This document shows positions 45,843-64,000 of a stretch of 64,000 nucleotides of DNA, piece by piece. The notes under the pieces are model-generated. The model was not told the DNA's origin, searched no databases, and worked only from the letters and a program-made list of their open reading frames with translations. Source of the stretch: Alphaproteobacteria bacterium. GTDB lineage: Bacteria > Pseudomonadota > Alphaproteobacteria > JABAAW01. Where the stretch lies: positions 32,374-96,373 of the forward strand of contig JABACB010000001.1 of the NCBI GenBank assembly GCA_014237925.1, in the 5' to 3' direction. Within the stretch, counting starts at the first letter, position 1, and every line of letters starts with the position of its first letter. The position numbers were made by a program, and so were the translations under genes.

Positions 45843-47201
45843 ATGCACCCCGCTGCCGAGACCTTCTACTTGGACGAAAACGCCACCGCACCGCTACGCG
45901 ACGAGGTGCGCGCGGGGATGCAAGCGGAAATGCAAGCAGAAATGCAAGAGGAAATGCAAGCGGGGCAGCAAGCAGGGCAGCAAGCGGAAATGCAAGCAGG
46001 GCAGCAAGCGAGACAGCAAGCGAGACAGCAAGCGGTGTGGCGCGATACGGGAAACGCCTCGTCGGTGCATAGCTTCGGCAGAAGGGCGCGCGCAAAAATC
46101 GAGGCGGCACGCGAGTGTATCGCACAAAAACTCGAAGCGAGCATCGAGGGCATCGTCTTTACAGGCAGCGGCAGCGAAGCCAACGCGCTCGCCTTGCACG
46201 ACAAGACGCGATTTTTCTGCTCGAAGGCAGAACACGCTTCCGTCCTCGAATGGCAGCCGAAGGACAAAAGAGCGACCCCCGAAATAGCGACGCAGAGCCT
46301 AGAGCGCGAACAGAGACTCGTGCCGCTTTTGCATACGGGGGTCGTCGATGTGAAAGCCTTGCAAACGATGCTCGACGACGCGCCCTCGCCGCCGCAGTTG
46401 GTCTCCGTCATGGCAGCCAACAACGAGACGGGCGTCGTGCAGCCCATCGAAACCATTGCCGAGATATGCCGTGCGCACGCCGTTCCTTTCCACTGCGACG
46501 CAACTCAGGCGGTGGGAAGGTTGCCCGTCTCGCTCAAGGCGTGGGGCGCAGACATGCTCACGCTCTCGGCGCACAAGCTCGGAGGACCGCAAGGGGTGGG
46601 CGCGCTCGTCTGCACAACCGAGGCGCGCACGCGATTAGTGCCGCTGTTGCGCGGTGGAGGGCAGGAGGGGGGCTTGCGAGCAGGCACCGAGAATGTGACC
46701 GCCATCGTAGGATTTGCAACCGCCTTGAACTTCGCCTGCCAAGAACTCGCGCGTATGGGGGAGATGCAAGCCAAAAGAGATGCCTTCGAACAAGAATTGC
46801 GTGCGCGAATCGAAGGGGTGCGTGTCGCGGGATTCGAGGTATCGCGTTTGGCGAACACTTCGTGTTTTGTCCATCCGCGTCTTTCCGCAGAGGTGTTGTT
46901 GATGTTGTGCGACGGCGAGGGAATCGCGCTCTCGTCTGGCGCGGCGTGTTCGTCGGGAAAGGTTGCCCCCAGCCATGTCTTGCGTGCAATGGGCTTCGAC
47001 GAGGCTTCGTGCAGGCGCGCAATCAGGGTTTCGTTCGGCTTGCGCACGCGCGAGGGAGCGCTGGACGCGCTGCTCGACTTGCTCGCGCGCAAGGAGAATA
47101 GCGAGAAGAGGGATGAGACAAGGATGGAGACAAGGATGGAGACAAGGATGGAGACAAGGATGGAGACAAGGGCGGAGAAAAGGGGAGAGGCTGTCGCGTG
47201 A
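45843..47201 (+). CDS. cysteine desulfurase (NifS/IscS family) with repeat insertions
   Basis: Class-V aminotransferase fold with the SAHKLGGPQG PLP-Lys motif. N-terminal in-frame (MQAEMQAGQQARQQ) 15-bp x8 repeat and C-terminal RMETRMETRMETRMET repeat. Confidence 0.8.
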   Translation: MHPAAETFYLDENATAPLRDEVRAGMQAEMQAEMQEEMQAGQQAGQQAEMQAGQQARQQARQQAVWRDTGNASSVHSFGRRARAKIEAARECIAQKLEASIEGIVFTGSGSEANALALHDKTRFFCSKAEHASVLEWQPKDKRATPEIATQSLEREQRLVPLLHTGVVDVKALQTMLDDAPSPPQLVSVMAANNETGVVQPIETIAEICRAHAVPFHCDATQAVGRLPVSLKAWGADMLTLSAHKLGGPQGVGALVCTTEARTRLVPLLRGGGQEGGLRAGTENVTAIVGFATALNFACQELARMGEMQAKRDAFEQELRARIEGVRVAGFEVSRLANTSCFVHPRLSAEVLLMLCDGEGIALSSGAACSSGKVAPSHVLRAMGFDEASCRRAIRVSFGLRTREGALDALLDLLARKENSEKRDETRMETRMETRMETRMETRAEKRGEAVA

Positions 47202-48950: not shown

Positions 48951-49006
48951 GTATCTGTTGCGCGAGCGCGTGCCATCAAAAGCACGAGCGCTCGCGCAAC
49001 AGATAC
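48951..49006. terminator. long near-perfect inverted repeat (about 23-bp stem, 8-nt loop) between convergent fdx and glycosylase genes; probable bidirectional terminator
   Basis: GTATCTGTTGCGCGAGCGCGTGC-catcaaaa-GCACGAGCGCTCGCGCAACAGATAC. There is no flanking U-tract, so terminator function is inferred. Confidence 0.4.
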
Positions 49007-49097
49007 GCATAAACCACCCAAACAAAAACTAACAAACAGAAACAGACTCGCACAAAACATCCTCCCCCCCTAAACGCAAACACACATAACTTTCCCC

Positions 49098-49772
49098 CTA
49101 CAACCCCTCGTCGTCAGGTTTCCTATCCCCACGCTTCTCTATCCCATAGCCTCGCCACAACAACAACGAAACATAACTCCGATACGGACTCCATAACTCC
49201 GCATAACCCCGCGCCTCACCCTCGTCCAAAACACCCCCACCCCCAAGACCCAACAACGCCATCCCCCCACGCAACGCCAAATCTCCCGCAGGAAAAATAT
49301 CACGCCGTCCCTCCGCAAACATCAAATAAATCTCCGCCGTCCATAACCCAATTCCCGCATAGCTACATAACAATTTTATCGCCTCAGCATCTCCCAGCGC
49401 ACCTATCATCGACGCATCCAACAAACCTTCGACAAAAGACCGCGCTAACGCACGAACATAACTCGCCTTCCGCCGAGACAACCCCAACCGACACAACCTA
49501 ACCTCCGTCATACGAGAACAACGCTCCGCCTCAAACGCTCCCGCCTCGCGCAGCCGAACACAAATAGCCTCCGCAGCATAACGAGACAACTGCTGACCGA
49601 CGATCGCACGCAACAAAGTCGGAAAACCCGCCTCCGACAACCTCGCGCACGGATACCCCCACCTCGCCAATCCACGCTTGACAACAACATCCCGCCGCGA
49701 AAGAACACGCAACCCTCGCCTTATCGTAGCGTTCGCCGCATCGACACTCAAAGAAGACATCCTCCCCTCCAC
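49098..49772 (-). CDS. HhH-GPD DNA glycosylase (3-methyladenine glycosylase II-like)
   Basis: Helix-hairpin-helix region GIGLWTAEIYLMF followed by a catalytic Asp (FPAGDLAL). Confidence 0.65.
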   Translation of the reverse strand: MEGRMSSLSVDAANATIRRGLRVLSRRDVVVKRGLARWGYPCARLSEAGFPTLLRAIVGQQLSRYAAEAICVRLREAGAFEAERCSRMTEVRLCRLGLSRRKASYVRALARSFVEGLLDASMIGALGDAEAIKLLCSYAGIGLWTAEIYLMFAEGRRDIFPAGDLALRGGMALLGLGGGGVLDEGEARGYAELWSPYRSYVSLLLWRGYGIEKRGDRKPDDEGL

Positions 49773-49787
49773 ACCTTCACGATAGCA

Positions 49788-51323
49788 CTAGGAAAAAACA
49801 TACTCCGAAACAACAGACGAAACCTCGCAAGACGACAGAGCAACTCGAAAATCCTCCTTCACGCGCTCCATCGCTTCCCTGTCCTCCCCCTCGCAACGCG
49901 CGACTAGCCCATCCTCAAACCGAGAAACCCGAACAATCCATCTCCCGTAAGAAAACTCCCGCTCAACTTCCTCCGTAGAGACACTCGCAGATACATTCGT
50001 AGACGCATCGCCCAAACTGCCATCTCCCGCCTCAACACAAGACTCCGCACAAGAGTCAACATAAGCGCGCAACTGCATCAACAAGACATCCTTGTTGTAA
50101 AGCCCCCCCCCCTCCTCTGTCCTTGCAACAAGAACCCGCAACAACTCCGAAACCCCTCTCGTCGAAGGCACGGCACGCAGAGCCTCCAAACGAATCGAGC
50201 TCATAGCCACCCCCGAAAGAAAACGCAGCGCAACATAAAACGCATCCTCAAACGGATAGTATTTGTCGCACAAAGCGATATGACCGTCGCAAGAAAAGGT
50301 CGAACAAGAAGAAGAGGAGAAGTCACCTCGTTGCGATGCCACTCGATCGGAAGACAGACAAGCGAGCATCTCCGCCCCGAACTCCGAACAGCGCACGACG
50401 CGCACACCCCAAGATTCCCACTCTCGAACCGCTTGCCTTTCCGCCAGCCCGTCCGCAAGCACAACACGCTGCGCAACACGCTGCGCAACATGCTTGCCCG
50501 CAGAAACATCCCCCCGCAACAGCAAGCCGAACAGCTCCTCTGGCGAAAGCTCCCTCCCCCCGACGAAAGCTTGCAACGCCGTCCCGTCGCTGTTGAACAG
50601 AAAACCCACCTGCTCGCGTTCCTCGCGCAGCGCGAGACGCAACGCAGCAACATCCTCCAGCACCAGCACTTGCTCTGCATGCGCCGAAAGCTTTTTGGCA
50701 ATCGCCTCCAACACCCCCTCTGAACTCCCATACGCGCTTTGCGCCAACAGCACGCGCGGTAGCAAACGCCGAACCCTGTTTTCGCCGCCTGCTGCGCCGT
50801 CGTCTTGCCGCCACGCGGTCTCGGCGAAAAGACGCATCGTGTAGGCGTCCACGCCCTCCGATTTTGCAAGCCGCCCCCCCGAAGCCTTGCGCCAGCTGCC
50901 GTTCGCAGCAATGTTGCGCAACCGCAACGCGCGCTCCGCGTCCAAAGCCGAGTTCTCAAGAAAAATCTTCACACCGCTGTGCGTCTTAGGCAAGGAGCCG
51001 CGCGACACCGAAAGAGCAACCTGCGCATGCAACTCGGTTGCCGCAAAGCGCACCAACGGCGCAGGAGAGACCGCGAAAGAAAGGACTCGAACTCCACACT
51101 CCAACAACCCTCGCACAACCTCGCTCTCCAAAGGCACGGAGAGAGGATGCGAATCCGAAGCGACGCAGGCATAGACAATAGGATGCCGATGCTGCAGAAA
51201 AGCACCGACCGCCTTGCCTAGAAAGTAGCCGTCGGCGAAATCCAAGCTCTCGTCCAAAGTGCCGAACATTCCCTGCTCGCCGAAAAGGCGCGATTCCAGA
51301 CGATACCCGTCTTCTCCGACCAC
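49788..51323 (-). CDS. phosphohexomutase (PGM/PMM)-family protein, divergent active site
   Basis: Domain I pattern GLLECGVRVLSFAVSPAPLVRFA...ALSVSRGSLPKTHSGVKIF aligns to G..V..G...TP...FA...ITASHNP..NG.K. The Ser is retained but the HNP motif is lost. Confidence 0.5.
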   Translation of the reverse strand: MVGEDGYRLESRLFGEQGMFGTLDESLDFADGYFLGKAVGAFLQHRHPIVYACVASDSHPLSVPLESEVVRGLLECGVRVLSFAVSPAPLVRFAATELHAQVALSVSRGSLPKTHSGVKIFLENSALDAERALRLRNIAANGSWRKASGGRLAKSEGVDAYTMRLFAETAWRQDDGAAGGENRVRRLLPRVLLAQSAYGSSEGVLEAIAKKLSAHAEQVLVLEDVAALRLALREEREQVGFLFNSDGTALQAFVGGRELSPEELFGLLLRGDVSAGKHVAQRVAQRVVLADGLAERQAVREWESWGVRVVRCSEFGAEMLACLSSDRVASQRGDFSSSSCSTFSCDGHIALCDKYYPFEDAFYVALRFLSGVAMSSIRLEALRAVPSTRGVSELLRVLVARTEEGGGLYNKDVLLMQLRAYVDSCAESCVEAGDGSLGDASTNVSASVSTEEVEREFSYGRWIVRVSRFEDGLVARCEGEDREAMERVKEDFRVALSSCEVSSVVSEYVFS

Positions 51324-52221: not shown

Positions 52222-53622
52222 ATGCCCGAAAGTATCATGAAAACCTTAAAAGACAAGGAAATTGACTATGTCGATCTGCGCTTTACCGATCTCCGCGGGA
52301 AGTGGCATCACACGACGCAGCATGTCTCGACGATCGACGCGTCGTTTTTCGAGGAGGGGGTGATGTTCGACGGCTCGTCGATTGCGGGCTGGAAGGACAT
52401 TCACGAATCGGACATGGTGCTGCATCCCGATCCTTCGACGGCATTCGTCGATCCGTTTACGGCGCAGAACACGCTCGTGCTGGTCTGCTCGGTCAAAGAC
52501 CCTGCTCACGGCGACCTTTACAACCGCGACCCTCGCTCGATTGCAACACGGGCGGGCGACTATATGCGCTCTAGCGGCGTTGCCGATACCGCCTACTTCG
52601 GTCCTGAAGCGGAGTTCTTCGTCTTCGACGATGTGCGCTTCACTGCGGAAAGCCACCGCATTGTTGCCCAGATCGATTCCGAAGAAGGGCCCTACAACAG
52701 CGCGCGCACCTACGAGGAGGGCAATTTCGGACACCGTCCGAGACCCAAGGGCGGCTATTTTCCCGTCCCCCCCGTCGATTCGGCTTTCGACTTGCGCTCC
52801 GAGATGGTGACCACCATCAAGTCGTGCGGCGTCGAAGTCGAGAAGCATCACCACGAAGTGGCTCCTTCGCAGCACGAGATAGGAATTCGTTTCAATCGTC
52901 TGCTGACGATCGCCGATCACATGCAGATCTACAAGTACTGCGTACAGATGGTCGCGCATTCCTACGGCAAAACCGCCACCTTCATGCCGAAACCCGTCTT
53001 CGGCGACAACGGATCGGGCATGCATGTCCATCAGTCCTTGTGGAAGGGCGGCAAGAACGTCTTCCTGGGCGAGGGCTATGCCGACTTGTCCGAGACAGCC
53101 CTACACTACATCGGCGGAATCATGAAGCATGCACGTGTGTTGAACGCGTTCGCCAATCCGACGACGAACAGCTACAAGCGGCTGGTGCCGGGTTTCGAGG
53201 CGCCCGTGCTGCTGGCATACTCGGCGAGAAATCGCTCGGCGGCTTGTCGTATTCCTATCTCGCCCAAAGCGGCGCGGCGCGTAGAGGTGAGGTTTCCCGA
53301 TCCTTCCGCCAATGCCTACCTTGCCTTCGCTTCGATGTTGATGGCGGGGTTGGACGGAATCGAAAACAAAATTCATCCTGGCGAGCCGCGCGATCAGGAT
53401 TTGTACGCTCTGAGTCGAGAGGAGCTAGACAAGATTCCGAATGTTTGCGGCTCCTTGCGGCGTGCGTTGGATTCGCTGGATGAGGATCGTGCCTTTTTGA
53501 CGAAGGGGGGGGTGTTCGACGACGACATGATCGACGCTTATATCGGGTTGAAGCGAGAGGAGTTGGAGCAGTATCAGAGCATGCCGCATCCGATCGAGTT
53601 TCAGCTGTATTACTCGGTCTAG
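52222..53622 (+). CDS. glnA: glutamine synthetase type I
   Basis: 466 aa, full GSI homology including the adenylylation-site region ([17 protein letters not shown]). Confidence 0.9.
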
Positions 53623-53652
53623 GGAGGAGCAAGGACGAGCCTGCTTTTTCAA

Positions 53653-53683
53653 TCCGCGCGTGCGCGCATAGTGCACGCGCGGA
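53653..53683 (+). terminator. GC-rich hairpin (11-bp stem) 30 nt after the glnA stop
   Basis: TCCGCGCGTGC-gcgcatagt-GCACGCGCGGA. No U-run. Confidence 0.3.
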
Positions 53684-53817
53684 CTGAAGCTCCAAGGGAG
53701 CGTAGGAAGAGGTTTGTGGAGCAAACGGAATAGAGGAATAGAGGAATCGGTGCCGATCAAAGACTTATGGTGGCAAAATTCTTTTCTGTTGGAGCGCGTT
53801 CAGTTTTGTATAGCGTT

Positions 53818-54555
53818 TTATTTTTCTCCGTTAATCAGGGTTCGCAGTTTTGTTCCCAATTCGTTACTCTTAAACCAGCAAGGGTCTTTTTCCATGAGTA
53901 CGGTAGGTGTTCTTGGGATAACGCCGGAGCTGTCTGCTATTGAGGCAGGGAGACAAAGACGCCAATCGTCGTAAGAAGCTCTTATAAGATTTTCATCTGT
54001 TTCTGTTTTATAAAATTCTTTTAACCAAAGAATCACTTCTTTGTCAGCAATCAGATGCAGTCCTCTGTCCAATGATTTTCCCTTAAAAATTGCGTTGGAA
54101 GAGTTGCACAAAAGCAAGTCGAAATCTTTCACGGTATATCGATCGTTCGTTGTTCCTTGTAATTTTAGGTTGCTGCGTGATTTATGACACTTAACCTTAA
54201 AATACGGCACGTTTTTATCTCGTCCCGATGTTCTCAAACTTCCACGCACGGCATTTTTTGTCTCAGCTTTTAATCGTGTTCCTGTTCTGCGGAAAGTAAT
54301 GCTTATATCCTCGTCGTATTGATTTTGCTGAGGATTAAGATTAAGTTTTTGTACATCCCAGTCTCTAGCATCCAAAACTTGTCGAAGAAATGCTGCCCCA
54401 ATATACTCTGTGGCTTTTCCTCGAATCATGGGCAATACTTTTTGATCTTCCAGTATATCAAGCAAGTTTTCTAAAGGTATATTGTATGTTTTACAATATG
54501 TCTTTATACTGTCGTAGATGACGAAGTCCTCTTTACTTTTTGTGTTTTCAGACAT
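53818..54555 (-). CDS. uncharacterised 245-aa protein coupled to the Dam-family MTase; candidate type II restriction endonuclease or defence effector
   Basis: Low-GC, K/N/I-rich ORF whose start overlaps the MTase stop by 8 nt. Possible PD-(D/E)xK-like YDED...AETK. No family recognised. Confidence 0.4.
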   Translation of the reverse strand: MSENTKSKEDFVIYDSIKTYCKTYNIPLENLLDILEDQKVLPMIRGKATEYIGAAFLRQVLDARDWDVQKLNLNPQQNQYDEDISITFRRTGTRLKAETKNAVRGSLRTSGRDKNVPYFKVKCHKSRSNLKLQGTTNDRYTVKDFDLLLCNSSNAIFKGKSLDRGLHLIADKEVILWLKEFYKTETDENLIRASYDDWRLCLPASIADSSGVIPRTPTVLMEKDPCWFKSNELGTKLRTLINGEK

Positions 54556-55600
54556 TTAAGCCACAGCTGTAATTTTGGATAAAAATTTCGGATCCTTTGG
54601 TACGTTTGCTTTTATATCCGTCCTTTTTCTTTCTTCCGTTTTTTTGGTCGTCGGTTCTATTGATAGTGTAATTCCATTGGTGTGCGTGTATTTTATCGAC
54701 CCACTGATACAAATGACGTACATCGTTATGGTCGTCGTAAGTTAGCAAAAACTTGAGCCTCGTGGAATTGCGTTGCAGACAATCCGCCAACCGCTTATGG
54801 TCGTGAGATGAAAAAGTGCAATTATAAAATTTTTGCTGATCCGCGTTGTAGTAGGGAGGATCTACGAAAAGAAAGCTTTCGTCGGGTTGTTTGTCAATAA
54901 TGTTCTCAAAATCACAGCTCGAAAGTTCTGTGTTTTGCAGCTTGTCAGATACTGTTCTCAGATGCGGTCCCCAGTTGCAGGGACGCATAGAGTACTTGTC
55001 GCCAAAGCCCCAATAACAGTTTTCGAAGCGCATAATGCCGCTGTAGGATGTTCGATTTAAATAAAACCATCTGAATGCTCGTTCTAAATTGTTCCGAGGG
55101 CGATACATGTCTTTGTAATAGGTATGGAGCTTCTTGTTAGCTTCTATGTTGCCAAATTTTTCTATCAGAAGCTCTACATTGTCTCGAATCTGTTTTAGTG
55201 TATTGACGATCTCCCAATCCAAATCATTTAAAATCGAATGCTTTGCAGTTTCCTTGGCAAAAAATATCGAAGCCCCCCCCGCAAAGGGCTCGCAGTAATA
55301 TTCGTGTTGCGGTATTAAACCCAGTATCAGCTTTCTTGCGTAAAATTTACCACCAGGGTAGCGGAAGGGAGAATTAGATTTGCCCGATTTGACAGCTTGC
55401 CGATCCTTTTGTTGTTGATGAATTTTACCAAGATGACAATTAACCTTTAACCATCGTTGTGCATCGGTGCAACGATCCTTAAAAGATTTTCTAAAAAAAT
55501 CTTTTGTGAAGGAAAAGTCTTGACCAACATCGTCATTGCCAACCAAATATCTTGGATGGCGTTTGTTGTCGATTCTGTCGTGTTCTTCGTTCTGTGCCAT
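54548..55600 (-). CDS. DNA N6-adenine methyltransferase, Dam/M.EcoRV family
   Basis: FRYPGGK (Dam motif), EPFAGGASIFF (SAM-binding FxGxG) and LFVDPPY (DPPY). Clear similarity to M.EcoRV segments. Has an N-terminal extension of at least 75 aa. Embedded in AT-rich DNA. Confidence 0.8.
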   Translation of the reverse strand: MAQNEEHDRIDNKRHPRYLVGNDDVGQDFSFTKDFFRKSFKDRCTDAQRWLKVNCHLGKIHQQQKDRQAVKSGKSNSPFRYPGGKFYARKLILGLIPQHEYYCEPFAGGASIFFAKETAKHSILNDLDWEIVNTLKQIRDNVELLIEKFGNIEANKKLHTYYKDMYRPRNNLERAFRWFYLNRTSYSGIMRFENCYWGFGDKYSMRPCNWGPHLRTVSDKLQNTELSSCDFENIIDKQPDESFLFVDPPYYNADQQKFYNCTFSSHDHKRLADCLQRNSTRLKFLLTYDDHNDVRHLYQWVDKIHAHQWNYTINRTDDQKNGRKKKDGYKSKRTKGSEIFIQNYSCGLNV

Positions 55601-55714
55601 CTCTACCGCTCTATTTGCCAAAGGCATTGCCAAAGAAACTTGAAAAAAAGTAGCGCCAGAAAAAATCCTTGTCAACATAAAATATCTCCATCTCAAGCCC
55701 CTTGCGTCTCCATC

Positions 55715-58477
55715 TCAAGCTTTCTGTTTCTCCTTCTCTCTCTTTTTTCGTTCTGCAATTGTAGCCTGCGCTGCTGCTAGCCGCGCGATCGCAACACGAT
55801 ACGGCGAACAAGATACATAATCCAATCCCAACTCCTCGCAAAAAGCAATCGAACGAGGGTCTCCTCCATGCTCGCCACAAATGCCCAACTTCAAAGCCTT
55901 GTTCGAACGCAATCCTCGCTCGACAGCCAACGACATCAAGGCACCAACCCCCGCTCGATCTAAAGTTGTAAACGGATCGTGCGACAAAAATCCCAATCGC
56001 TCGTACTCCTGCAAAAAACTGCCCGCATCGTCACGACTGATACCCCATACCGTCTGCGTCAAGTCGTTCGTGCCAAAACTGAAAAACTCCGCGCTCTTCG
56101 CAATCTCGTCCGCCAACAGCGCCGCGCGAGGCAACTCAACCATCGTGCCGATACGCCAATCCAACGGCTCGAAGGGCTCCGTTCCGCTCGACAGCGCCTC
56201 CTTCTCGCGCCACACCTCCTCCGCCGTGCACCGCACGACCGAACACAGACGGTCGAACTCCGCCTTCGTTGCAATCAACGGCAGCATAATCTCACACACA
56301 GGCAAAACACCACGCTCGCGCGCCAAAAACGCCGCCTCGAAAATCGCACGCGACTGCATCACGCAAATCTCAGGGTAGGTCGCAAGAAGACGCGCCCCTC
56401 GGTGACCCAACATCGGATTGCTCTCCTGCAAGCGAGCCGTGCGCACGCGCGCATCCTCCAACGACAGAGTCAGCGTCGGCGCAAGGCTCTCCACCAGCGC
56501 GCGCAAGCCCTCGTCGTTGTGCGGCAGAAACTCGTGCAGGGGGGGGTCCAACAGGCGAATCGTGACGGGTAAGCCGTCCATCGCCGTGAAAATTCCGACA
56601 AAGTCCTCGCGCTGCATCGGCAAAAGGCGCGCGAGCGCCGCTTCGCGCTCTTCGTGCGATAGCGCGAGAATCATCGCTCGCATCGCCGTGATCCGTTCGC
56701 CGTCGAAGAACATATGCTCGGTTCGACACAAGCCGATACCCTCCGCTCCGAAGGCGCGCGCGAGCGTCGCGTCCTCGGCGGTGTCGGCGTTCGCGCGAAC
56801 GCGCATCCGACGCGCCTCGTCGCACCAGCCCATCAGTCGATGGAAGGTTGCGTCCAGCTCGGGCAGAATCATCGACACCTTGCCGAGATACACCTCGCCC
56901 TTCGCTCCGTCGATCGAGAGGAAGTCGCCTTCGCTCAATGTCGTCTCGCCTACGCTGAGCGTCTTGTTGACGGCATCGATCACGAGATCGCTCGCTCCGC
57001 AGACGCAAGCGCGCCCCATGCCGCGCGCAACAACGGCGGCATGGCTTGTCATGCCGCCGCGCGCAGTGAGAATGCCTTTCGCCGCGTGCATGCCGTGAAT
57101 ATCCTCAGGAGAAGTTTCCAGACGCACCAGCACAACTTCCTGACCGTTGCGCGTGCGCTCTTCCGCCTCGTCGGCGCTGAAGGCGATCTGTCCGCAGGCG
57201 GCGCCTGGCGAGGCGGGCAGTCCGCGCGTCAGAAGCGTCTTCGCTGCTTTCGGATCGAGACGCGCGTGCAGCAACTGGTCTAGCGACTGCGGCTCGATAT
57301 GCAGCAAAGCTTCTTCTTGGCTGATGTGTCCTTCGTCCAGAAGGTCGCAGGCGATCTTGACGGCAGCCTGCGCCGTGCGTTTTCCGGAGCGAGTTTGCAG
57401 CAGGAAGAGCAGACCTTTCTCGACCGTAAACTCGATATCTTGCATGTCGCGGTAGTGGCGTTCCAGGATATCTCGCACTTGCAGCAGCTCTTGGAAGATG
57501 CGCGGGTGGCTTCGCTCCAGCGAGGGGAGGGCAGCGACCGTGTTGTGGCGGCTTGGAATGTTTTTTTGCTGTGAGGGTTCTGAGATGGGTTGTGGTGTTC
57601 GTATTCCTGCGACGACGTCTTCGCCTTGCGCGTTTTCGAGGAACTCGCCGTAGAGGTAGTTTTCGCCGTTTGCGGGGTTTCGTGTAAAGGCGACGCCTGT
57701 CATGCAATCGTTGCCCATGTTTCCAAACGCCATGGCTTGGATGGTGACGGCGGTTCCCCAGCGTTCGGGGATATTGTTAAGTTTGCGGTAGGTTTTCGCG
57801 CGCGGCGAGAGCCAGCTTTGGAAGACGGCTTTGAGGGCTTGTTGCAGTTGGTCGAGCGGGTTTTGGGGGAAGGGGAGGGCTGCCTTTTCCGAGACGAGCG
57901 TTTTGTATTGAGCGATGAGTTGTTGCAGGTGTGTTTCGGAGAGGTCGGTATCGAGGTCGACCTTGTGTTGTCGTTTGAGATCGTCGAGGGTAGATTCGAA
58001 CTGGTAGTGGGGCACATTGAGGACGACATTTCCGAACATGTGGATGAAGCGTCGGTAGGAATCGAGTGCGAAGCGTTTGTTGTTGCTTTCTTGAGCGAGT
58101 CCTTCGAGGGTTTTGTCGTTGAGTCCGAGGTTGAGGACGGTATCCATCATGCCGGGCATGGAGACTCTGGCGCCTGAGCGCACGGAGACGAGGAGGGGGT
58201 TTTTTGTATCGCCGAGTTTTTTGTTGATTTGTGTTTCGAGCGTTGCCAGAGCGGGGGCAAGTTGCGAGACGAGGGATTGGGGGAGGGTGTTTGTTTTGTA
58301 GAATTCTTGGCAAGCTTCTGTTGAGACGATAAACCCTGGCGGCACATTGAGTCCGATCTCTGCCATTTCGCACAGGTTTGCGCCTTTGCCGCCGAGCAGA
58401 TTTCGCATCTCTGCCGAGCCTTCGTTGTGGTTCTTGCCGAAGTGGTAGATCCACTTCGGATCGGGGGAGGAGGACAT
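55715..58477 (-). CDS. ppdK: pyruvate, phosphate dikinase
   Basis: 920 aa with PEP-utilising and ATP-grasp domains, and the catalytic His region GGMTSHAAVVARG. Confidence 0.9.
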   Translation of the reverse strand: MSSSPDPKWIYHFGKNHNEGSAEMRNLLGGKGANLCEMAEIGLNVPPGFIVSTEACQEFYKTNTLPQSLVSQLAPALATLETQINKKLGDTKNPLLVSVRSGARVSMPGMMDTVLNLGLNDKTLEGLAQESNNKRFALDSYRRFIHMFGNVVLNVPHYQFESTLDDLKRQHKVDLDTDLSETHLQQLIAQYKTLVSEKAALPFPQNPLDQLQQALKAVFQSWLSPRAKTYRKLNNIPERWGTAVTIQAMAFGNMGNDCMTGVAFTRNPANGENYLYGEFLENAQGEDVVAGIRTPQPISEPSQQKNIPSRHNTVAALPSLERSHPRIFQELLQVRDILERHYRDMQDIEFTVEKGLLFLLQTRSGKRTAQAAVKIACDLLDEGHISQEEALLHIEPQSLDQLLHARLDPKAAKTLLTRGLPASPGAACGQIAFSADEAEERTRNGQEVVLVRLETSPEDIHGMHAAKGILTARGGMTSHAAVVARGMGRACVCGASDLVIDAVNKTLSVGETTLSEGDFLSIDGAKGEVYLGKVSMILPELDATFHRLMGWCDEARRMRVRANADTAEDATLARAFGAEGIGLCRTEHMFFDGERITAMRAMILALSHEEREAALARLLPMQREDFVGIFTAMDGLPVTIRLLDPPLHEFLPHNDEGLRALVESLAPTLTLSLEDARVRTARLQESNPMLGHRGARLLATYPEICVMQSRAIFEAAFLARERGVLPVCEIMLPLIATKAEFDRLCSVVRCTAEEVWREKEALSSGTEPFEPLDWRIGTMVELPRAALLADEIAKSAEFFSFGTNDLTQTVWGISRDDAGSFLQEYERLGFLSHDPFTTLDRAGVGALMSLAVERGLRSNKALKLGICGEHGGDPRSIAFCEELGLDYVSCSPYRVAIARLAAAQATIAERKKREKEKQKA

Positions 58478-58525
58478 GGCAGGAATGTCGTTTGCGTGTT
58501 GTTAGGGTTGTTATTGTTGTGGTTG

Positions 58526-60730
58526 TTATTGTTGCTTGTTTTTTTGTTGCTTGTCTTTTTGTTGTTTATCTTTGTGATGGATTTTTGTGAAGTCGGCGAG
58601 TTCCAAGAATCGTCGGTAGATGCTGTATAGCAGACGGAGTCGGTTTTGTCGAATGTTTTCGTGCTTGTCTATAACGAGGACATGGTCGAAGAAGGGGTCG
58701 ACGGCATCTTTGAGGCTGCCGAGCGTTTGTAGTTTTTGGGTGAAGGTTAGGTTTTGCCATGCGCTTTCTGCGAGGAGTTGATGCGTGCGGGCGTGTAGAT
58801 TTCTTTCTTCGGTTGCTGAGAAGAGGTCGGGGGAGGGGGGGGAGGTGAAGGAGGAGAAATCATCGGAGTAAGGGCGTAAGATAGCGTGCAAGCGGTAGAA
58901 AATTTCTGCCAAGGGGTTGTTGTTGTCAATTTCTTTTGCCAGTTTTATGGTATGATAATAGATTTGGTGGATATTGCATTCTTGCGCGTTATCGTGCGTT
59001 AATACGGCTTCGATGCAATCGTGCGGTAGTTGTTCGTGGTCTTTGATGAAGACGCGTAGCCTTTCCAGTATGAAACTGACGATTTCCTTCAATAGTAATT
59101 CACGAGACTCTCCGTAAAAAGGACTGTCGTCTACATGCTGTGTGGAGAGAATTTCTAACGTACTTTCAAATACGCCTTTTAGAGGTAGAGATATGTTTTT
59201 CAAAGCAAATATAGTACCAAGGGCGTACCGCCGTAAAGCAAAAGGGTCGCCAGAGCCGGTGGGTTTTTCTCCTACGCTCCAAAGGGAGACAAGGGTGTCG
59301 ATGTTGTCGGCGATGTCGGCGATGTCGGCGGCGTTGGCTATGCCGACGATGGCGCGAGAGATAGAGGCACTGGATTTAAATTTATTGTCTATCAGTTCTC
59401 GGCTAATTGATTTTTGCAAAGAAGGAAACTCTCGGACGGTTTCTGTTGCCAAACCGAAATTCAACTCATCAACTTGCCTTTCAAACAAAGCGGGATCGTA
59501 TTCACTGTCCAGCGCAGGATCGTCGTTGTTGTTTTTTAATGTCTCGACAATAACAGGGATCAATCGCTTGGTGCGTTGGTTTTTATCTGCGATTGTTTTT
59601 AATTTTGGATGGAAAATTATATTTTGTAGTTTATTGATAAATTCCTCTATAGGAGTTTTTTTATCACGTTCCCACATAAATTTTGCGTCCGCCAGCCTTG
59701 CCCTCACCACGCGTTCGAAGCCTTTAATGATATTGTTTTTTTCTTGTTTTTGCTTGATATACGGGATATTCGTGATAATAAAAAATTCACCGTCTCCGCT
59801 TTTAACATTTGAGTCGCGAATCATTTTTTGATGTTCGCTGAGAACCGTGTTGATGAGAAAAGATGGCAAATCGTTAAATTCTTCGTCAAAGTGACCTTTA
59901 AAAACGATAGGATATTCGGTCAAGCATGCGTTTTCTTGTAGCAGACGATATTTTCTAGGAAATTCTGCTTTATAATCGTAGACGGAATTGCCTGCTACAT
60001 TTTCAAAAATTTCATCAAATCTTTTTTGATAGATTGGCTCAACATAGTTTTTACGCAACTTGTCCTCGTAGTCTTGTATGCCCGTAACAACGATAGTGCC
60101 AGATGAAGCAAAAGGATGCCCGCGCGTCTTACGCGTAAAAGATAGATTTTCCTTGTTACCTAATTCTAACGCACCCTTGACACCCTTTCCTGCAAACACC
60201 GCCGTGATATGTCGTAAAGGACGCACCCAACGAAAATTTTGTTTGCCAAAACGCATCCTGACAGGTAATTCTTTCGCCATCCTCCCGATCACCCGCACGA
60301 CCACCTCCTCCAAAAGTTCGCTCAACGAGAGTGCTATGTGTCTTACTGTAAAAGCCCAGTAATCTCCTTTCTTTGCGTCTGCAACACGCCGACACTCCTT
60401 TGTCGTTTTCAATCCGTTCGCTCGCAAGAATCCGTCGATCGCCACTTGTGGAGAATTGACACGCGGCCCTCTGCGCTCCTCCTCCCAAGCCTCGCTTCGC
60501 ACAGGAACATCGGCAATCCCCACCGCAACCCGCCGCGGCGTCCAATAGACACGCCGCTCGCCAAAGGTGTTTTCTGTGTTCTGTAATCCCAACGCCTTCA
60601 CCAGCTCCTCTTGCAAAAACTTCTCTAGTTTGCGAGTCATAGGTTCTTGCAAGTTCCACGGAATTTCTTCGCTGTATAACTCAATGAGAAGTTCTGCGGT
60701 TTCTTTTTTTTCTTCCTTTACCACAGTCAT
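58526..60730 (-). CDS. glyS: glycine--tRNA ligase beta subunit
   Basis: Full-length GlyS homology. Start at the internal MTVVKEE overlapping the glyQ stop (ATGA). The interior 58.9–60.3 kb is strikingly AT-rich. C-terminal [17 protein letters not shown] tail. Confidence 0.85.
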
Positions 60731-61629
60731 GATTCTTCCTCCTTCATCTCGCGCCTCTCTTCTCCCAACCACACCGCGCAGCAGGCATGCGCCATCTGCC
60801 TTACGCGCAAAATATAACTCGGTCGCGCGTTCTGCTGTACCGCTCCCCGTGCATCCATAAGATTAAAGGTATGCGAGGCTTTTAGGCAATAATCGTACGC
60901 AGGCATCGCATCGTATTTATTTCCCTCCCGCGCCGCGTCGCACAAGGCGATACATTGTCGCTCGCATTCGTCAAATTGCTCCTCTAATACCTTCACATCG
61001 GCTTGCTCGAAGTTAAACCTGCCGTAAGACTTTTCCATGCCCTCATACACATCGCCATAAGTCATGGCATCGTTGTATTGCAAGTCAAAGATTCTCTCCT
61101 TGCCTTGCAAATACATCGCAAGCCGCTCCAACCCGTAGGTCAGCTCGGTCGAGACAGGCTCGCAGGCAAACCCGCCCACCTGCTGAAAATAGGTGAACTG
61201 CGAAACCTCCATGCCGTCACACCATACCTCCCATCCCAAGCCCTTCGCGCCCAAGGTGGGGCTCTCCCAGTCGTCCTCGACAAATCGAATGTCGTGGCTC
61301 TCGACCTTGATGCCGATCGCACGCAAGGAATCCAAATACAACTCCTGACTCTTCTCAGGCGAGGGTTTCAACAACACCTGATACTGAAAATAATGCTGCA
61401 AGCGGTTCGGATTCTCGCCGTAGCGACCGTCCGCAGGACGACGGCAGGGTTGTACATACGCCGCCCGCCACGGCTCGCTACCCAGCGACTTCAACGCCGT
61501 TGCCCAGTGGAAAGTGCCTGCGCCTACCTCCATGTCGTAGGGCTGCAAGATGACACAGCCACGCTCAGACCAGTAATCGTGCAGCGTCAAGATCATGCGC
61601 TGAAAGGAGGAGGGGGAGGGGGTCGCCAT
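60727..61629 (-). CDS. glyQ: glycine--tRNA ligase alpha subunit
   Basis: 300 aa, highly conserved GlyQ (MILTLHDYW...[19 protein letters not shown]). Confidence 0.9.
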
Positions 61630-61673
61630 AGGGCTTCGATTCTAACGCGCTCTCGGTGGTATGGCAACAAGGG

Positions 61674-61722
61674 CGGGCTGCGGTCGGGCTGCGGTCGGGC
61701 TGCGGTCGGGCTGCGGTCGGTC
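61674..61722. repeat. tandem repeat, 11-bp unit gggctgcggtc x4–5 in the glyQ/carB divergent region
   Basis: Direct reading. Confidence 0.9.
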
Positions 61723-61799
61723 GATGGCGTGCCACAAAAGCCTGTGGACAAGAAGAGATAGAAGATGACACGAGGCTTCGTCTCGGCTAGAGTTTTTGC

Positions 61800-64000
61800 A
61801 TGCCCAAACGCACCGACATCGAGACGATCATGATCATCGGCGCCGGTCCGATCGTCATCGGACAAGCTTGCGAGTTCGACTACTCCGGAACCCAAGCCTG
61901 TCGCGCGCTCAGAGAAGAAGGGTATCGCGTTGTGCTGGTGAACTCGAACCCCGCGACGATCATGACGGATCCCGACATGGCGGACAGAACCTACATCGAA
62001 CCCCTTGTTCCTGAGGTACTCTCGCGCATCATCGCGCACGAGAAACCCTGCGCGCTGCTTGCAACCGTCGGAGGACAGACGGCGCTGAATATCGCCTGCC
62101 GCCTCGACAAGGAAGGAATTCTCGCGCGACACGATGTGCAACTGATCGGCGCCTCGATCAAGTCGATCGAGACGGCGGAAGACCGCTGGCTCTTCAAGAA
62201 GGCGGTCGAAGGAGCAGGGCTCGCCTGTCCGCGCGCCGTGCGCGTCTCGCGCGAAAGCCAGAGCGAGGAAGCCCTAGAAAAGATCGGACTGCCCGCCATC
62301 ATCCGTCCCGACTTCACCCTCGGCGGCAGCGGCGGCAGCATCGCCTACAACAAGCAACAGCTGGCGGAAGGAATCAAAAACGCGCTGCTCGTATCGCCTA
62401 CAACCTCGGCGACGGTCGAAGAATCCGTCATCGGATGGAAAGAGTTCGAAATGGAAGTCGTGCGCGATTGCAAAGACAACGCCATCGTCGTCTGCTCGAT
62501 CGAAAACATCGATCCGATGGGCGTCCACACCGGCGACTCGATCACGGTCGCCCCCGCGCTCACGCTCACCGACAAAGAGCTGCAAGCCATGCGCAACGCA
62601 GCCATCGAAGTGCTTCGCCTCGTCGGCGTCGATACGGGAGGATCGAATGTGCAGTTCGCCGTCCATCCGACCGACGGCAGAATGCTCGTCATCGAAATGA
62701 ACCCGCGCGTCTCACGCTCGTCGGCGCTCGCCTCGAAAGCGACGGGTTTTCCCATCGCCAAGATCGCGGCGAAACTCGCGGTCGGCTACAGCCTCGATGA
62801 GCTCGCCAACGACATGACGCGCACCACCCCTGCCAGCTTCGAGCCTGTGCTGGACTATGTCGTCGTCAAGATTCCGCGTTTCGACTTCGAAAAGTTTCCC
62901 GGCGCCGATCGCACATTGACAACCCACATGAAGTCGGTGGGCGAAGCCATGGCGATCGGACGCTCCTTCGACGAGGCGTTGCAAAAAGCCTTGCGCTCGA
63001 TGGAGACAGACCTGTCAGGCTTGGATCCCGTCATCGCGACGGCGCAACTGACAAAAGAACAGATCCACGAACGATTGGAGGCGGCGCTCGTCCAACCCCG
63101 TCCCGAACGCCTGCTCCTCATCGCTGATGCCTTCCGACACGGCATCAACATCGAACAAGTGGCGGAACTGACCGGTATCGATCGGTGGTTCTTGCGTCGC
63201 CTGCAAGACCTCGTTGTTCAAGAAGCCTCGATCGCAGCGCACGGTCGCAAGCCCCTGCGTCGCGCTACATTGCTTGCGTGGAAACGCCGCGGCTTTTCGG
63301 ACGCACGCATCGCAACGCTCCTGCGGCGCAAGGAAGAGAAGATTCGCAAACGTCGTCATGCGCTGGGCGTTCTTGCCGTGTATCGTCGCATCGACAGCTG
63401 CGCCGCCGAGTTTCCCGTCTGTAGCGCCTATATGTACAGCAGTTACGCGGAGGGAGATTCGCGCATCTGCGAGTCGGAGCCGAGCGACCGCGACAAGGTG
63501 GTGATCTTGGGCGGCGGTCCGAATCGCATCGGACAGGGGATCGAGTTCGACTATTGTTGCGTCCATGCCAGCCTCGCGCTGCGTGCGCAGGGCTATGAGA
63601 CGATCATGGTGAATTGCAACCCTGAGACGGTCTCGACCGATTACGACATCTCGGATCGTCTTTACTTCGAGCCCGTGGGCATCGAAGACGTTTTGGCGCT
63701 GCTCACGCGTGAGCGGACGCGCGGTCATCTTGCGGGTGTTGTTGTCCAATTGGGAGGTCAGACTCCGCTGAAGTTGGCGCGCCTTTTGGAACGCGAGGGC
63801 ATCCCTCTGTTGGGAACGACTTCGGATGCGATCGATTTGGCGGAAGATCGAGCGCGCTTCGGCAAGTTGCTGATGCGCTTGGGCTTGCGGCAGCCGAAGC
63901 ATGGCAGCACGCGCGCGGGTCGCGCTTCGTTGCCGCAGGCGCTGCGCTTGGCGAAAAGGATTGGCTATCCTGTTTTGGTGCGTCCGTCCTATGTGCTGGG
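61800..64000 (+). CDS. carB: carbamoyl-phosphate synthase large subunit (5' partial, continues beyond window)
   Basis: [57 protein letters not shown]. The second ATP-grasp half begins near 63.5 kb. Confidence 0.85.

Follow-up and report, generated by a model that had tools for sequence, protein, structure and literature searches.

What are the two genes that occupy an AT-rich tract between ppdK and glnA in a small-genome alphaproteobacterium, and how did they come to be there? The locus lies within a 64,000-nucleotide stretch of DNA, referred to here as the window. An earlier note, made from the sequence, had described a 2-kb AT-rich island containing two co-oriented genes, overlapping by 8 nt, between the convergent 3' ends of glnA and ppdK, and this arrangement is confirmed. 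We consider it very probable that the island is a type II restriction-modification (R-M) module, probably of type IIP, gained by horizontal transfer. On this reading the pair is ordinary, if previously uncharacterised, and does not represent a novel type of defence.

Composition and boundaries of the island

The inserted island is ~2.05 kb in length, has a GC content of ~40% compared with ~59% for the whole window, and fills the ppdK-glnA spacer at approximately 53666-55714, as delimited by homology to relatives that lack it and by the GC profile. In 300-nt windows from ~53800 to 55750 the GC fraction is 0.34-0.44, with the adjoining genes at 0.55-0.65, and the 2-kb bin 54001-56000 stands at 0.413 against 0.55-0.63 across most of the window. 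GC3 follows the same pattern, being 0.35 and 0.43 for the two island genes compared with 0.73 for glnA (52222-53622, plus strand) and 0.69 for ppdK (55715-58477, minus strand), the flanking genes whose 3' ends both point toward the island. The low-GC tract is filled by two open reading frames, both on the minus strand.

The contrast in composition noticed earlier therefore stands, with a background of about 55-63% GC in place of the 60-65% first given. The window is not otherwise uniformly GC-rich, as had been thought; a second low-GC stretch at 58.5-60.8 kb corresponds to glyS (58526-60772, 0.45 GC). Considered as a second island, this gene was rejected: it is native, and its orthologues in relatives are equally AT-rich (0.455 and 0.396). 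Low GC by itself is thus no proof of transfer in this genome, and glyS provides a precedent for the idea that the tract between ppdK and glnA is ancestral DNA that has likewise drifted to low GC.

This idea can be given almost no credence in light of the corresponding junction in related genomes, where the earlier note had suggested looking for an empty site. Three relatives of the host have an empty ppdK-glnA junction that lacks the two genes, with spacers of 315, 314 and 3 bp, and for both genes the closest homologues occur in unrelated phyla. Synteny is kept in these relatives, with carB-glyQ-glyS-ppdK followed on the opposite strand by glnA-dnaJ-like-PGM-HhH, and their ppdK identity to the host is 88-89% and 76%. 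The empty junctions of three syntenic relatives show that the island was acquired, and since relatives with 88% ppdK identity lack it, the insertion is recent.

The two relatives with longer spacers, L091 and L093 (314-315 bp, 60-63% GC), also define the edges of the island. Similarity to them breaks off at 55715/55714 next to ppdK and, toward glnA, at 53632-53665, so that the limits of 53740-55705 originally assigned to the island were too narrow. Directly past the glnA stop is a GC-rich hairpin with 16-nt arms that are 94% complementary (53648-53688, plus strand), which is likely to be the glnA terminator. This hairpin is partly host DNA, homology to L093 extending to 53665; its arm at 53673-53688 falls within the stretch assigned above to the insertion. 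Tandem Repeats Finder identifies an 8-nt microsatellite, GGAATAGA, in 2.6 copies (53727-53747) at the edge of the island that faces glnA. Its copy number differs between strains, with three additional copies in strain contig L002; beyond the microsatellite, just 2 SNPs in 2.4 kb, and no frameshift, separate L002 from the window. Inspection of the island ends revealed no terminal inverted repeats, flanking direct repeats or target-site duplication, and neither an integrase nor a controller open reading frame was found, in agreement with the earlier description. The sole duplication near the ends is the 14-nt GCTTGAGATGGAGA on the ppdK side, which does not flank the island.

The methyltransferase

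The first gene of the pair (54548-55678, minus strand) encodes a D12/alpha-class DNA methyltransferase of 376 aa, counted from the ATG at 55678. This is the start chosen by gene callers, and a GGAGA sits 7 nt 5' of it; the reading frame itself extends 5' to a TTG at 55696 (54548-55696, 382 aa). The protein matches PF02086 (E = 2.6e-32, 113 bits versus a cut-off of 22), TIGR00571 (127.4 bits, cut-off 114.85) and the PADLOC MTase_II model PDLC03247 (1e-73). Against the Dam equivalog NF008152, which describes GATC methyltransferases, it scores 53.7 bits, below the cut-off of 441, and it is not a Dam orthologue. The sequence motifs on which the original description was based, FRYPGGK, EPFAGGASIFF and DPPY, are all present. 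The SAM-binding motif I, EPFAGGASIFF (FxGxG; residue 136, 55259-55291, minus strand), aligns with motif I of M.CbeI and DpnM, and the catalytic motif IV, DPPY (residue 279, 54851-54862, minus strand), lies C-terminal to it in the order characteristic of the alpha class, with the target-recognition region between the two. Both motifs are intact.

The base that is modified is a more subtle matter than this motif content had implied. DPPY is typical of m6A enzymes. It is, however, also carried by the closest solved relative of the window methyltransferase, M.CbeI (PDB 7M6B; E = 4.5e-27, compared with 1.4e-15 for DpnM and 1e-9 for Dam), an alpha-class D12 enzyme reported, like DmtB, to generate N4-methylcytosine in GGCC. 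M.CbeI and the window methyltransferase align end-to-end, including a C-terminal KG-E-FI-NY block, at 29% identity, a level at which neither specificity nor target base can be carried over. To call the enzyme unambiguously N6-adenine-specific and M.EcoRV-like was therefore an overstatement: the target is most likely adenine N6, and a further possibility is that, like M.CbeI, the enzyme writes N4-methylcytosine rather than N6-methyladenine. More generally, the presence of DPPY is no ground for automatically calling a D12 methyltransferase an m6A enzyme. CbeI, the partner of M.CbeI, is reportedly a far larger, HaeIII-like protein of ~326 aa.

An N-terminal extension of ~95 aa (55397-55678, minus strand) appears to be specific to this lineage, having no homologue in 90 loci and no Pfam match. 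The homologous methyltransferases listed, at least 120 in number, are of 281-327 aa, bar one 186-aa fragment, and those aligned begin 17-20 aa ahead of FRYPGGK. Between M33 and the methyltransferase core there is no in-frame ATG, GTG or TTG.

The endonuclease partner

The second gene (53818-54555, minus strand) encodes the 245-aa protein that is the predicted restriction endonuclease. It matches no family in Pfam, NCBIfam or PHROG, and a PDB sequence search (phmmer and profile) returned only noise. Among the 20 homologue clusters looked up, every annotated one is a "hypothetical protein" and the others are nameless; annotated homologues of the methyltransferase carry only the generic name "DNA adenine methylase". 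A cultured-phage database gave zero matches, and a plasmid search only three Acinetobacter records, also hypothetical. The lack of any recognised family or PDB relative is what would favour a role as a non-nuclease toxin or as a novel methylation-gated defence effector, a proposal made in the earlier note alongside that of a new nuclease. To call the protein unrecognisable was nevertheless too strong, because the PADLOC REase_II model PDLC03516 matches residues 18-157 with E = 1.6e-22, a match that covers profile positions 6-157 of 266 only, i.e. the N-terminal ~140 residues, the C-terminal part being different.

The structure prediction and fold search advocated in that note have now been performed and point to a PD-(D/E)xK nuclease. 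Whereas a single-sequence AlphaFold2 run reached a pLDDT of only 35.7, the model built with a 68-sequence alignment has a pLDDT of 88.9 and a pTM of 0.84. It contains the PD-(D/E)xK core, an alpha-beta-beta-beta-alpha-beta arrangement with an aspartate opening strand 2 and (D/E)xK in strand 3. E50 (54406-54408, minus strand) lies in a helix formed by residues 41-60, D83 opens the strand at 84-88, and E98 and K100 are in the strand at 93-102. The segment D83 ... E98-T-K100 (54256-54309, minus strand) forms the predicted catalytic core. The YDED...AETK pattern noticed at the outset is present in the protein. No variation is seen at E50, D81, D83, E98 or K100 among 68 homologues, and all invariant residues are kept in the window protein. 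As modelled, the partner is a nuclease of the classical restriction fold. With an invariant E...D...ExK constellation at canonical secondary-structure positions of a predicted canonical core, a match to a type II restriction endonuclease HMM, and a two-gene architecture with no further conserved partner in all loci of the family, a non-nuclease effector becomes a very remote prospect.

The model is nearest in fold to the PD-(D/E)xK homing endonuclease I-Ssp6803I (PDB 2OST) and archaeal Hjc. Identity to these is only 12-15%, and the window endonuclease has ~100 extra residues, which make up a helical part at the N-terminus and a further region at the C-terminus. It also differs in that a methyltransferase always accompanies it and in that it lies outside any intron. 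The closer functional parallel is with the classical two-gene type IIP systems DpnII and EcoRV, which likewise consist of a separate D12, alpha-class methyltransferase and a small PD-(D/E)xK endonuclease; the ~245-aa endonuclease, tight linkage and horizontal mobility of the window pair all resemble these systems. The methyltransferase would modify a short specific sequence in the host's own DNA, with SAM as methyl donor, and the endonuclease would cut the same sequence when unmethylated, for example in incoming phage or plasmid DNA, with D83 and E98-x-K100 as the predicted metal-binding/catalytic residues and E50 on the first helix. The enzymatic activity, specificity and defence role of the pair are inferred.

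Linkage, distribution and mobility

A D12 methyltransferase adjoins the endonuclease homologue in 68/68 non-redundant loci, all of them from metagenome-assembled genomes and together spanning >10 phyla. The genes are co-oriented with the methyltransferase first in 58 loci and convergent in the other 10, and identities to the window pair co-vary between methyltransferase and endonuclease with r = 0.85. No additional conserved partner gene is found at these loci, the plain two-gene pair being retained throughout. Together with the predicted nuclease fold and the three empty junctions, this linkage upholds the original reading of a horizontally acquired, methyltransferase-first type II R-M system.

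The same pairing is found on Acinetobacter plasmids and on 3 viral contigs. On the plasmids (e.g. pAR3651_2), the methyltransferase is 56% identical to that of the window and is accompanied by a 266-aa protein that shares the N-terminal catalytic half of the endonuclease (36% identity over residues 20-157). The plasmid pair differs in that the C-terminal 90 residues cannot be aligned and in that the gene order is convergent, not methyltransferase-first.

With ~155 clusters at 50% identity among 1.84 billion representatives, this is a narrow family, moving among uncultivated bacteria of numerous phyla, many of them from lineages typical of marine sponges. R-M systems are said to be enriched in sponge microbiomes, and the distribution of the family fits such an enrichment. 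In one Thioclava metagenome-assembled genome the module is carried by an IS1595-family element, of which there are at least 14 copies; here the methyltransferase is internally deleted and the endonuclease reading frame is intact.

These observations raise the question of whether the pair is mainly a selfish addiction or mobility module, maintained by post-segregational killing and transposon spread rather than by phage defence, with a nuclease whose role is nearer to that of homing endonucleases. The similarity in fold to I-Ssp6803I, carriage by an IS1595-family element, and a spread at 60-70% identity over >10 phyla are all consistent with this, as is a module GC lower than that of the host here and than that of the flanks in most other hosts. 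Strict linkage to a methyltransferase is, however, foreign to homing endonucleases, and the window contains no intron or intein context. Moreover, such a view is compatible with an R-M system, describing the same biochemistry from the side of the element. As an explanation in its own right we regard it as unlikely, and the R-M reading is preferred.

Recognition site

The only 6-mer wholly missing from all 68 modules is GCATGC, where 13-18 occurrences would be expected, and this absence provides a lead to GCATGC as a candidate recognition site. Avoidance of palindromes in host DNA was not diagnostic for specificity. GGCC, which likeness to M.CbeI would suggest, occurs 16 times in the host compared with 266 expected; it was rejected as the site, since relatives without the island share the depletion, which is not seen in the majority of the family's other hosts.

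GCATGC is the site of R.SphI, a His-Me finger (HNH) nuclease of group 28 (PMC5714182). R.SphI was rejected as a relative on account of this fold, which differs from the PD-(D/E)xK fold predicted for the window enzyme; the likeness is confined to the candidate site, and if that is shared, the two enzymes would be unrelated isoschizomers. A more ambitious proposal combines several elements: that the 245-aa protein founds an uncharacterised PD-(D/E)xK restriction-enzyme family, that it recognizes GCATGC and so is an isoschizomer of SphI, an HNH enzyme, without being homologous to it, and that it belongs to a mobile module shared by uncultivated marine, largely sponge-type symbionts of >10 phyla and sometimes carried as IS1595 cargo. 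Taken jointly, these are put forward tentatively, and the full combination is doubtful.

Gene coupling, expression and integrity

The methyltransferase stop and endonuclease start overlap by 8 nt, read off the sequence as ATGTCTGA (54548-54555, minus strand). With the methyltransferase gene first, such an overlap would make translation of the endonuclease dependent on prior translation of the methyltransferase, a form of translational coupling. No promoter-like site was found 5' of the gene pair. The gap of 36 nt between the end of ppdK and the methyltransferase start has neither a promoter- nor a terminator-like site, and the pair may therefore be expressed by read-through from ppdK.

The lack of a promoter-like site could also be taken to mean that both genes are silent, or that the island is a decaying remnant comprising an orphan methyltransferase and a dead nuclease, a passive passenger of a reduced symbiont genome. 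Genomes of the host lineage are indeed small, at 1.7-1.9 Mb, and the methyltransferase has its unusual N-terminal extension. The Thioclava copies, with a deleted methyltransferase and an open endonuclease frame, illustrate that an open reading frame is no proof of activity. Against decay, both reading frames are intact, the invariant residues of the endonuclease and motifs I and IV of the methyltransferase are kept, the insertion is recent (absent at 88% ppdK identity), and just 2 SNPs, and no frameshift, distinguish the two strain contigs. We therefore judge a remnant to be improbable, and favour a type II R-M module that landed in the ppdK-glnA spacer of this small-genome alphaproteobacterium.

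Concluding remarks

As a type II R-M island the locus is of the textbook kind and opens no new question. Its interest lies in the endonuclease, which represents a compact family outside Pfam and NCBIfam, labelled "hypothetical" wherever it is named, for which a fold and catalytic residues can now be predicted with confidence and an obligate methyltransferase partner named. Together, these attributes could improve annotation, and the family might yield a new reagent enzyme. For the biology of the host, the ppdK-glnA junction provides a clean empty-site example of the gain of an R-M system in a reduced symbiont genome.

Structure and acquisition of the island

The AT-rich tract between glnA and ppdK very probably holds a type II R-M pair gained by horizontal transfer, for which a standard mechanism is inferred. 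In the composition profile, GC lies at 0.34-0.44 from ~53800 to ~55750, compared with 0.55-0.65 in the flanking genes, and the 2-kb bin 54001-56000 stands at 0.413, with other bins at 0.55-0.63 save one low bin at 58-60 kb. The sharp drop described in an earlier note is therefore real, as is the two-gene tract with its 8-nt overlap, although the background, put there at 60-65% GC, is nearer 59%. Two long ORFs fill the tract in the six-frame list, both on the minus strand (a minor correction to that note): the MTase gene (54548..55696; 382 aa from a TTG, or 376 aa from the ATG at 55678 used in metagenome gene calls) and the gene for its partner, the endonuclease (53818..54555; 245 aa). Their overlap reads ATGTCTGA. 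Both glnA (52222..53622, plus strand) and ppdK (55715..58477, minus strand) turn their 3' ends towards the pair, and GC3 is 0.35 and 0.43 in the island genes versus 0.73 in glnA and 0.69 in ppdK.

Low GC alone is indecisive here because native glyS is equally AT-rich in relatives. This gene (58526-60772) forms a second low-GC stretch (0.45, down to 0.36 internally), and its orthologues, at 0.455 and 0.396, mark it as native rather than foreign. Its protein evolves fast, with 67% identity where ppdK has 88%. In one relative (1.94-Mb contig, L093:2821-6000), glyQ is broken into two ORFs, and the stretch from there to ppdK has no long ORF called as glyS, reflecting either pseudogenisation or long-read indel errors.

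A ppdK homologue search found close relatives of the host (ppdK 75-89% identical) on 1.7-1.9 Mb contigs; the nearest named taxa are only ~62% identical, and the host is a divergent alphaproteobacterium. Three relatives keep carB-glyQ-glyS-ppdK followed by glnA-dnaJ-like-PGM-HhH on the opposite strand, with ppdK-glnA spacers of 315, 314 and 3 bp that have no R-M genes; the 314-315-bp spacers have 60-63% GC. By blastn, homology to these relatives breaks off precisely at the stop of ppdK (55715/55714) on one side and, a little beyond glnA, at 53632-53665 on the other. Breaks at both edges, together with R-M-free spacers, indicate an insertion, or spacer replacement, in the window's lineage, bearing out the earlier proposal of horizontal acquisition and its suggestion that the junction be compared in related genomes. 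Also as described there, the ORF list and a repeat search revealed no integrase or target-site duplication, nor were terminal inverted repeats or flanking direct repeats found at the island. A 14-nt direct duplication, GCTTGAGATGGAGA (minus strand, 55685-55728, copies 22 nt apart), was rejected as a target-site duplication because its copies do not flank the island; one shares bases with the stop codon of ppdK, and the other contains the GGAGA that serves as the MTase's ribosome-binding site. No promoter-like or terminator-like site was found between ppdK and the MTase start, which makes it plausible that the pair would be read through from ppdK.

An 8-nt microsatellite (GGAATAGA) occupies 53727-53747, on the island's glnA-facing edge. 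The contig of a second strain (L002) has three extra copies and otherwise only 2 SNPs over 2.4 kb. Short tandem peptide repeats also occur in housekeeping proteins (45843-47201, 58526-58600 and 55715-55760): the aminotransferase/cysteine-desulfurase-like ORF at 45843-47201 has N-terminal EMQA/GQQA repeats and ETRM x5 at its C terminus, glyS ends in a 15-residue tract (not shown) and ppdK in KKREKEKQKA. Microsatellites inside genes seem prone to expansion throughout this genome. Very strong strand skew (GC skew to -0.64, AT skew to +0.43) is seen at 49000-50300, surrounding the HhH-GPD and PGM genes and an ORF-poor stretch upstream.

The endonuclease

The partner had been regarded as unrecognisable, which holds for Pfam, NCBIfam and PHROGs, where it has no match, but not for PADLOC, where residues 18-157 match the REase_II model PDLC03516 (1.6e-22). 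The PDB contains no relative detectable by sequence or by profile. Of 457 proteins recovered in a homologue search, the best 120 are 61-71% identical, and any name given among these is 'hypothetical'. In an alignment of 68 homologues E50, D81, D83, E98, K100 and others are invariant. The structure prediction advocated in the earlier note, run as AlphaFold2 with this alignment, gave a confident PD-(D/E)xK fold (pLDDT 88.9, pTM 0.84), in which D83 opens strand 84-88, E98-T-K100 lies within strand 93-102 and E50 sits on helix 41-60. The predicted active-site layout is the canonical one for PD-(D/E)xK enzymes, and the weak YDED...AETK pattern spotted previously is for this reason predicted to be the true active site. 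With such a model and invariant residues, the proposed non-nuclease effector lacks credibility. The protein falls in a small PD-(D/E)xK family, as yet uncharacterised, which an existing defence-system HMM library covers in part. The family is narrow. Among 1.84 billion representatives, 155 clusters at 50% identity reach E <= 1e-3 and 32 of those clusters reach E <= 1e-30; many clusters are fragments.

The methyltransferase

The MTase belongs to a known class (D12/alpha). It matches Pfam PF02086 (D12 class, 2.6e-32), the PADLOC type II methyltransferase model PDLC03247 (1e-73) and NCBIfam TIGR00571 (Dam family; 127.4 bits, cut-off 114.85), and falls far under the 441-bit cut-off of the Dam equivalog model, at 53.7 bits. 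Its motifs follow the alpha-class order, with motif I (EPFAGGASIFF) at residue 136 and motif IV (DPPY) further on at residue 279. Its best solved relative in the PDB, aligned end to end, is 7M6B (4.5e-27), M.CbeI of Caldicellulosiruptor bescii, ahead of DpnM (1.4e-15) and Dam (~1e-9). M.CbeI also carries DPPY and was once annotated as a D12 adenine methylase, yet has been experimentally assigned N4-cytosine methylation of GGCC, as reported too for its relative DmtB. Motifs thus cannot sustain the earlier description of the island enzyme as unambiguously N6-adenine, and since the two are only 29% identical, neither site nor base is transferable from M.CbeI.

No homologue of the first ~95 residues turned up in any related locus, nor do they match Pfam. 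Homologous MTases have 281-327 aa among the 120 matches listed, save one 186-aa fragment, and two aligned ones begin 17-20 aa ahead of FRYPGGK. As read in the sequence, no in-frame ATG, GTG or TTG lies between M33 and the core, and GGAGA stands 7 nt ahead of the ATG at 55678, so the extension is probably translated.

Site avoidance

GGCC is strikingly rare in the host DNA (1-53700 and 55715-64000), with 16 observed against 266 expected (O/E 0.06); ACGT (0.21), CCGG (0.35), TCGCGA (0.27) and CTCGAG (0.33) are also depleted. As a mark of the island's specificity this was rejected, because the island-less relatives L091, L093 and L094 share the depletion (2 vs 45, 2 vs 45 and 4 vs 28), and it is lacking in most of the family's other hosts. 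It is a lineage trait unrelated to the island and predating it, and indicates that the lineage has long been exposed to other restriction systems.

A different site is missing from the modules. Not one GCATGC occurs in the 105.7 kb of the 68 modules left after duplicate removal (window 53818-55400 and loci L008-L090). A maximal-order Markov model predicts 13.0 occurrences, and 300 shuffles of synonymous codons gave 18.0 +/- 3.7, never fewer than 7. Of the 2072 strand-collapsed 6-mers with expectation >= 8, no other has a zero count. The base after GCATG is A in 50 cases, G in 47, T in 16 and C in 0, and two 6-mers one step away, CCATGC (1.62-fold) and GCATGA (1.3-fold), are over-represented. 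Outside the modules no depletion is seen (host flanks O/E 0.82; window 34 observed vs 32 expected). The module might conceivably avoid its own recognition site, a tentative lead only. Just as well, mobile DNA may shun 6-bp palindromes in general, with GCATGC as the most extreme case: GTGCAC, CCATGG, TGCGCA and ACGCGT are likewise 2- to 4-fold low. R.SphI is an HNH enzyme (PMC5714182), whereas the window endonuclease is predicted to be PD-(D/E)xK, and any site shared between them would therefore be convergent.

Linkage, spread and mobility

Relatives were scanned in one genome per species; 117 were found and 80 kept, all metagenome-assembled genomes. They span Dehalococcoidia, Gammaproteobacteria, Phototrophicaceae, Nitrospirales, Latescibacterota, Ca. 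Spongiihabitans, Rhodobacteraceae, Verrucomicrobiae, Bdellovibrionales, Saccharibacteria, Bacteroidota and Sedimentisphaerales. In every locus tblastn with the window MTase core showed the endonuclease homologue to have a cognate MTase (51-72% identical) as its immediate neighbour, a linkage seen in 68/68 loci after duplicate removal (58 co-oriented with the MTase first, 10 convergent). Identities of the two proteins to the window pair correlate (r = 0.85), and gene-call tables for two genomes give a 288-291-aa D12 MTase followed by a 234-244-aa partner. Two palindromic inverted-duplicate contigs, L001 (ERZ26869290 ctg314868; glnA ... MTase fragments ... endonuclease ... glnA) and L092 (ctg330202; ppdK-glyS / glyS-ppdK), are in all likelihood artefacts of assembly and were left out as evidence.

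The pair also occurs on three IMG/VR viral contigs, with no copy in a cultured-phage collection, and a more distant pair is found on small Acinetobacter plasmids. One Thioclava MAG has the module inside a 2.8-kb element present in at least 14 copies that are 99.6-100% identical (L063:2083-4908, L064-L075 and L081; contigs CBDIBW01...). This element has 36-nt inverted repeats at its ends and encodes a 325-aa IS1595-family transposase with IS1595 DDE and zinc-ribbon domains; some copies are interrupted by further insertions. An internal deletion has split the MTase, with loss of the NDLD region, and the endonuclease ORF is still open, open reading frames here being no proof of activity. The Thioclava element represents one way in which the module travels.
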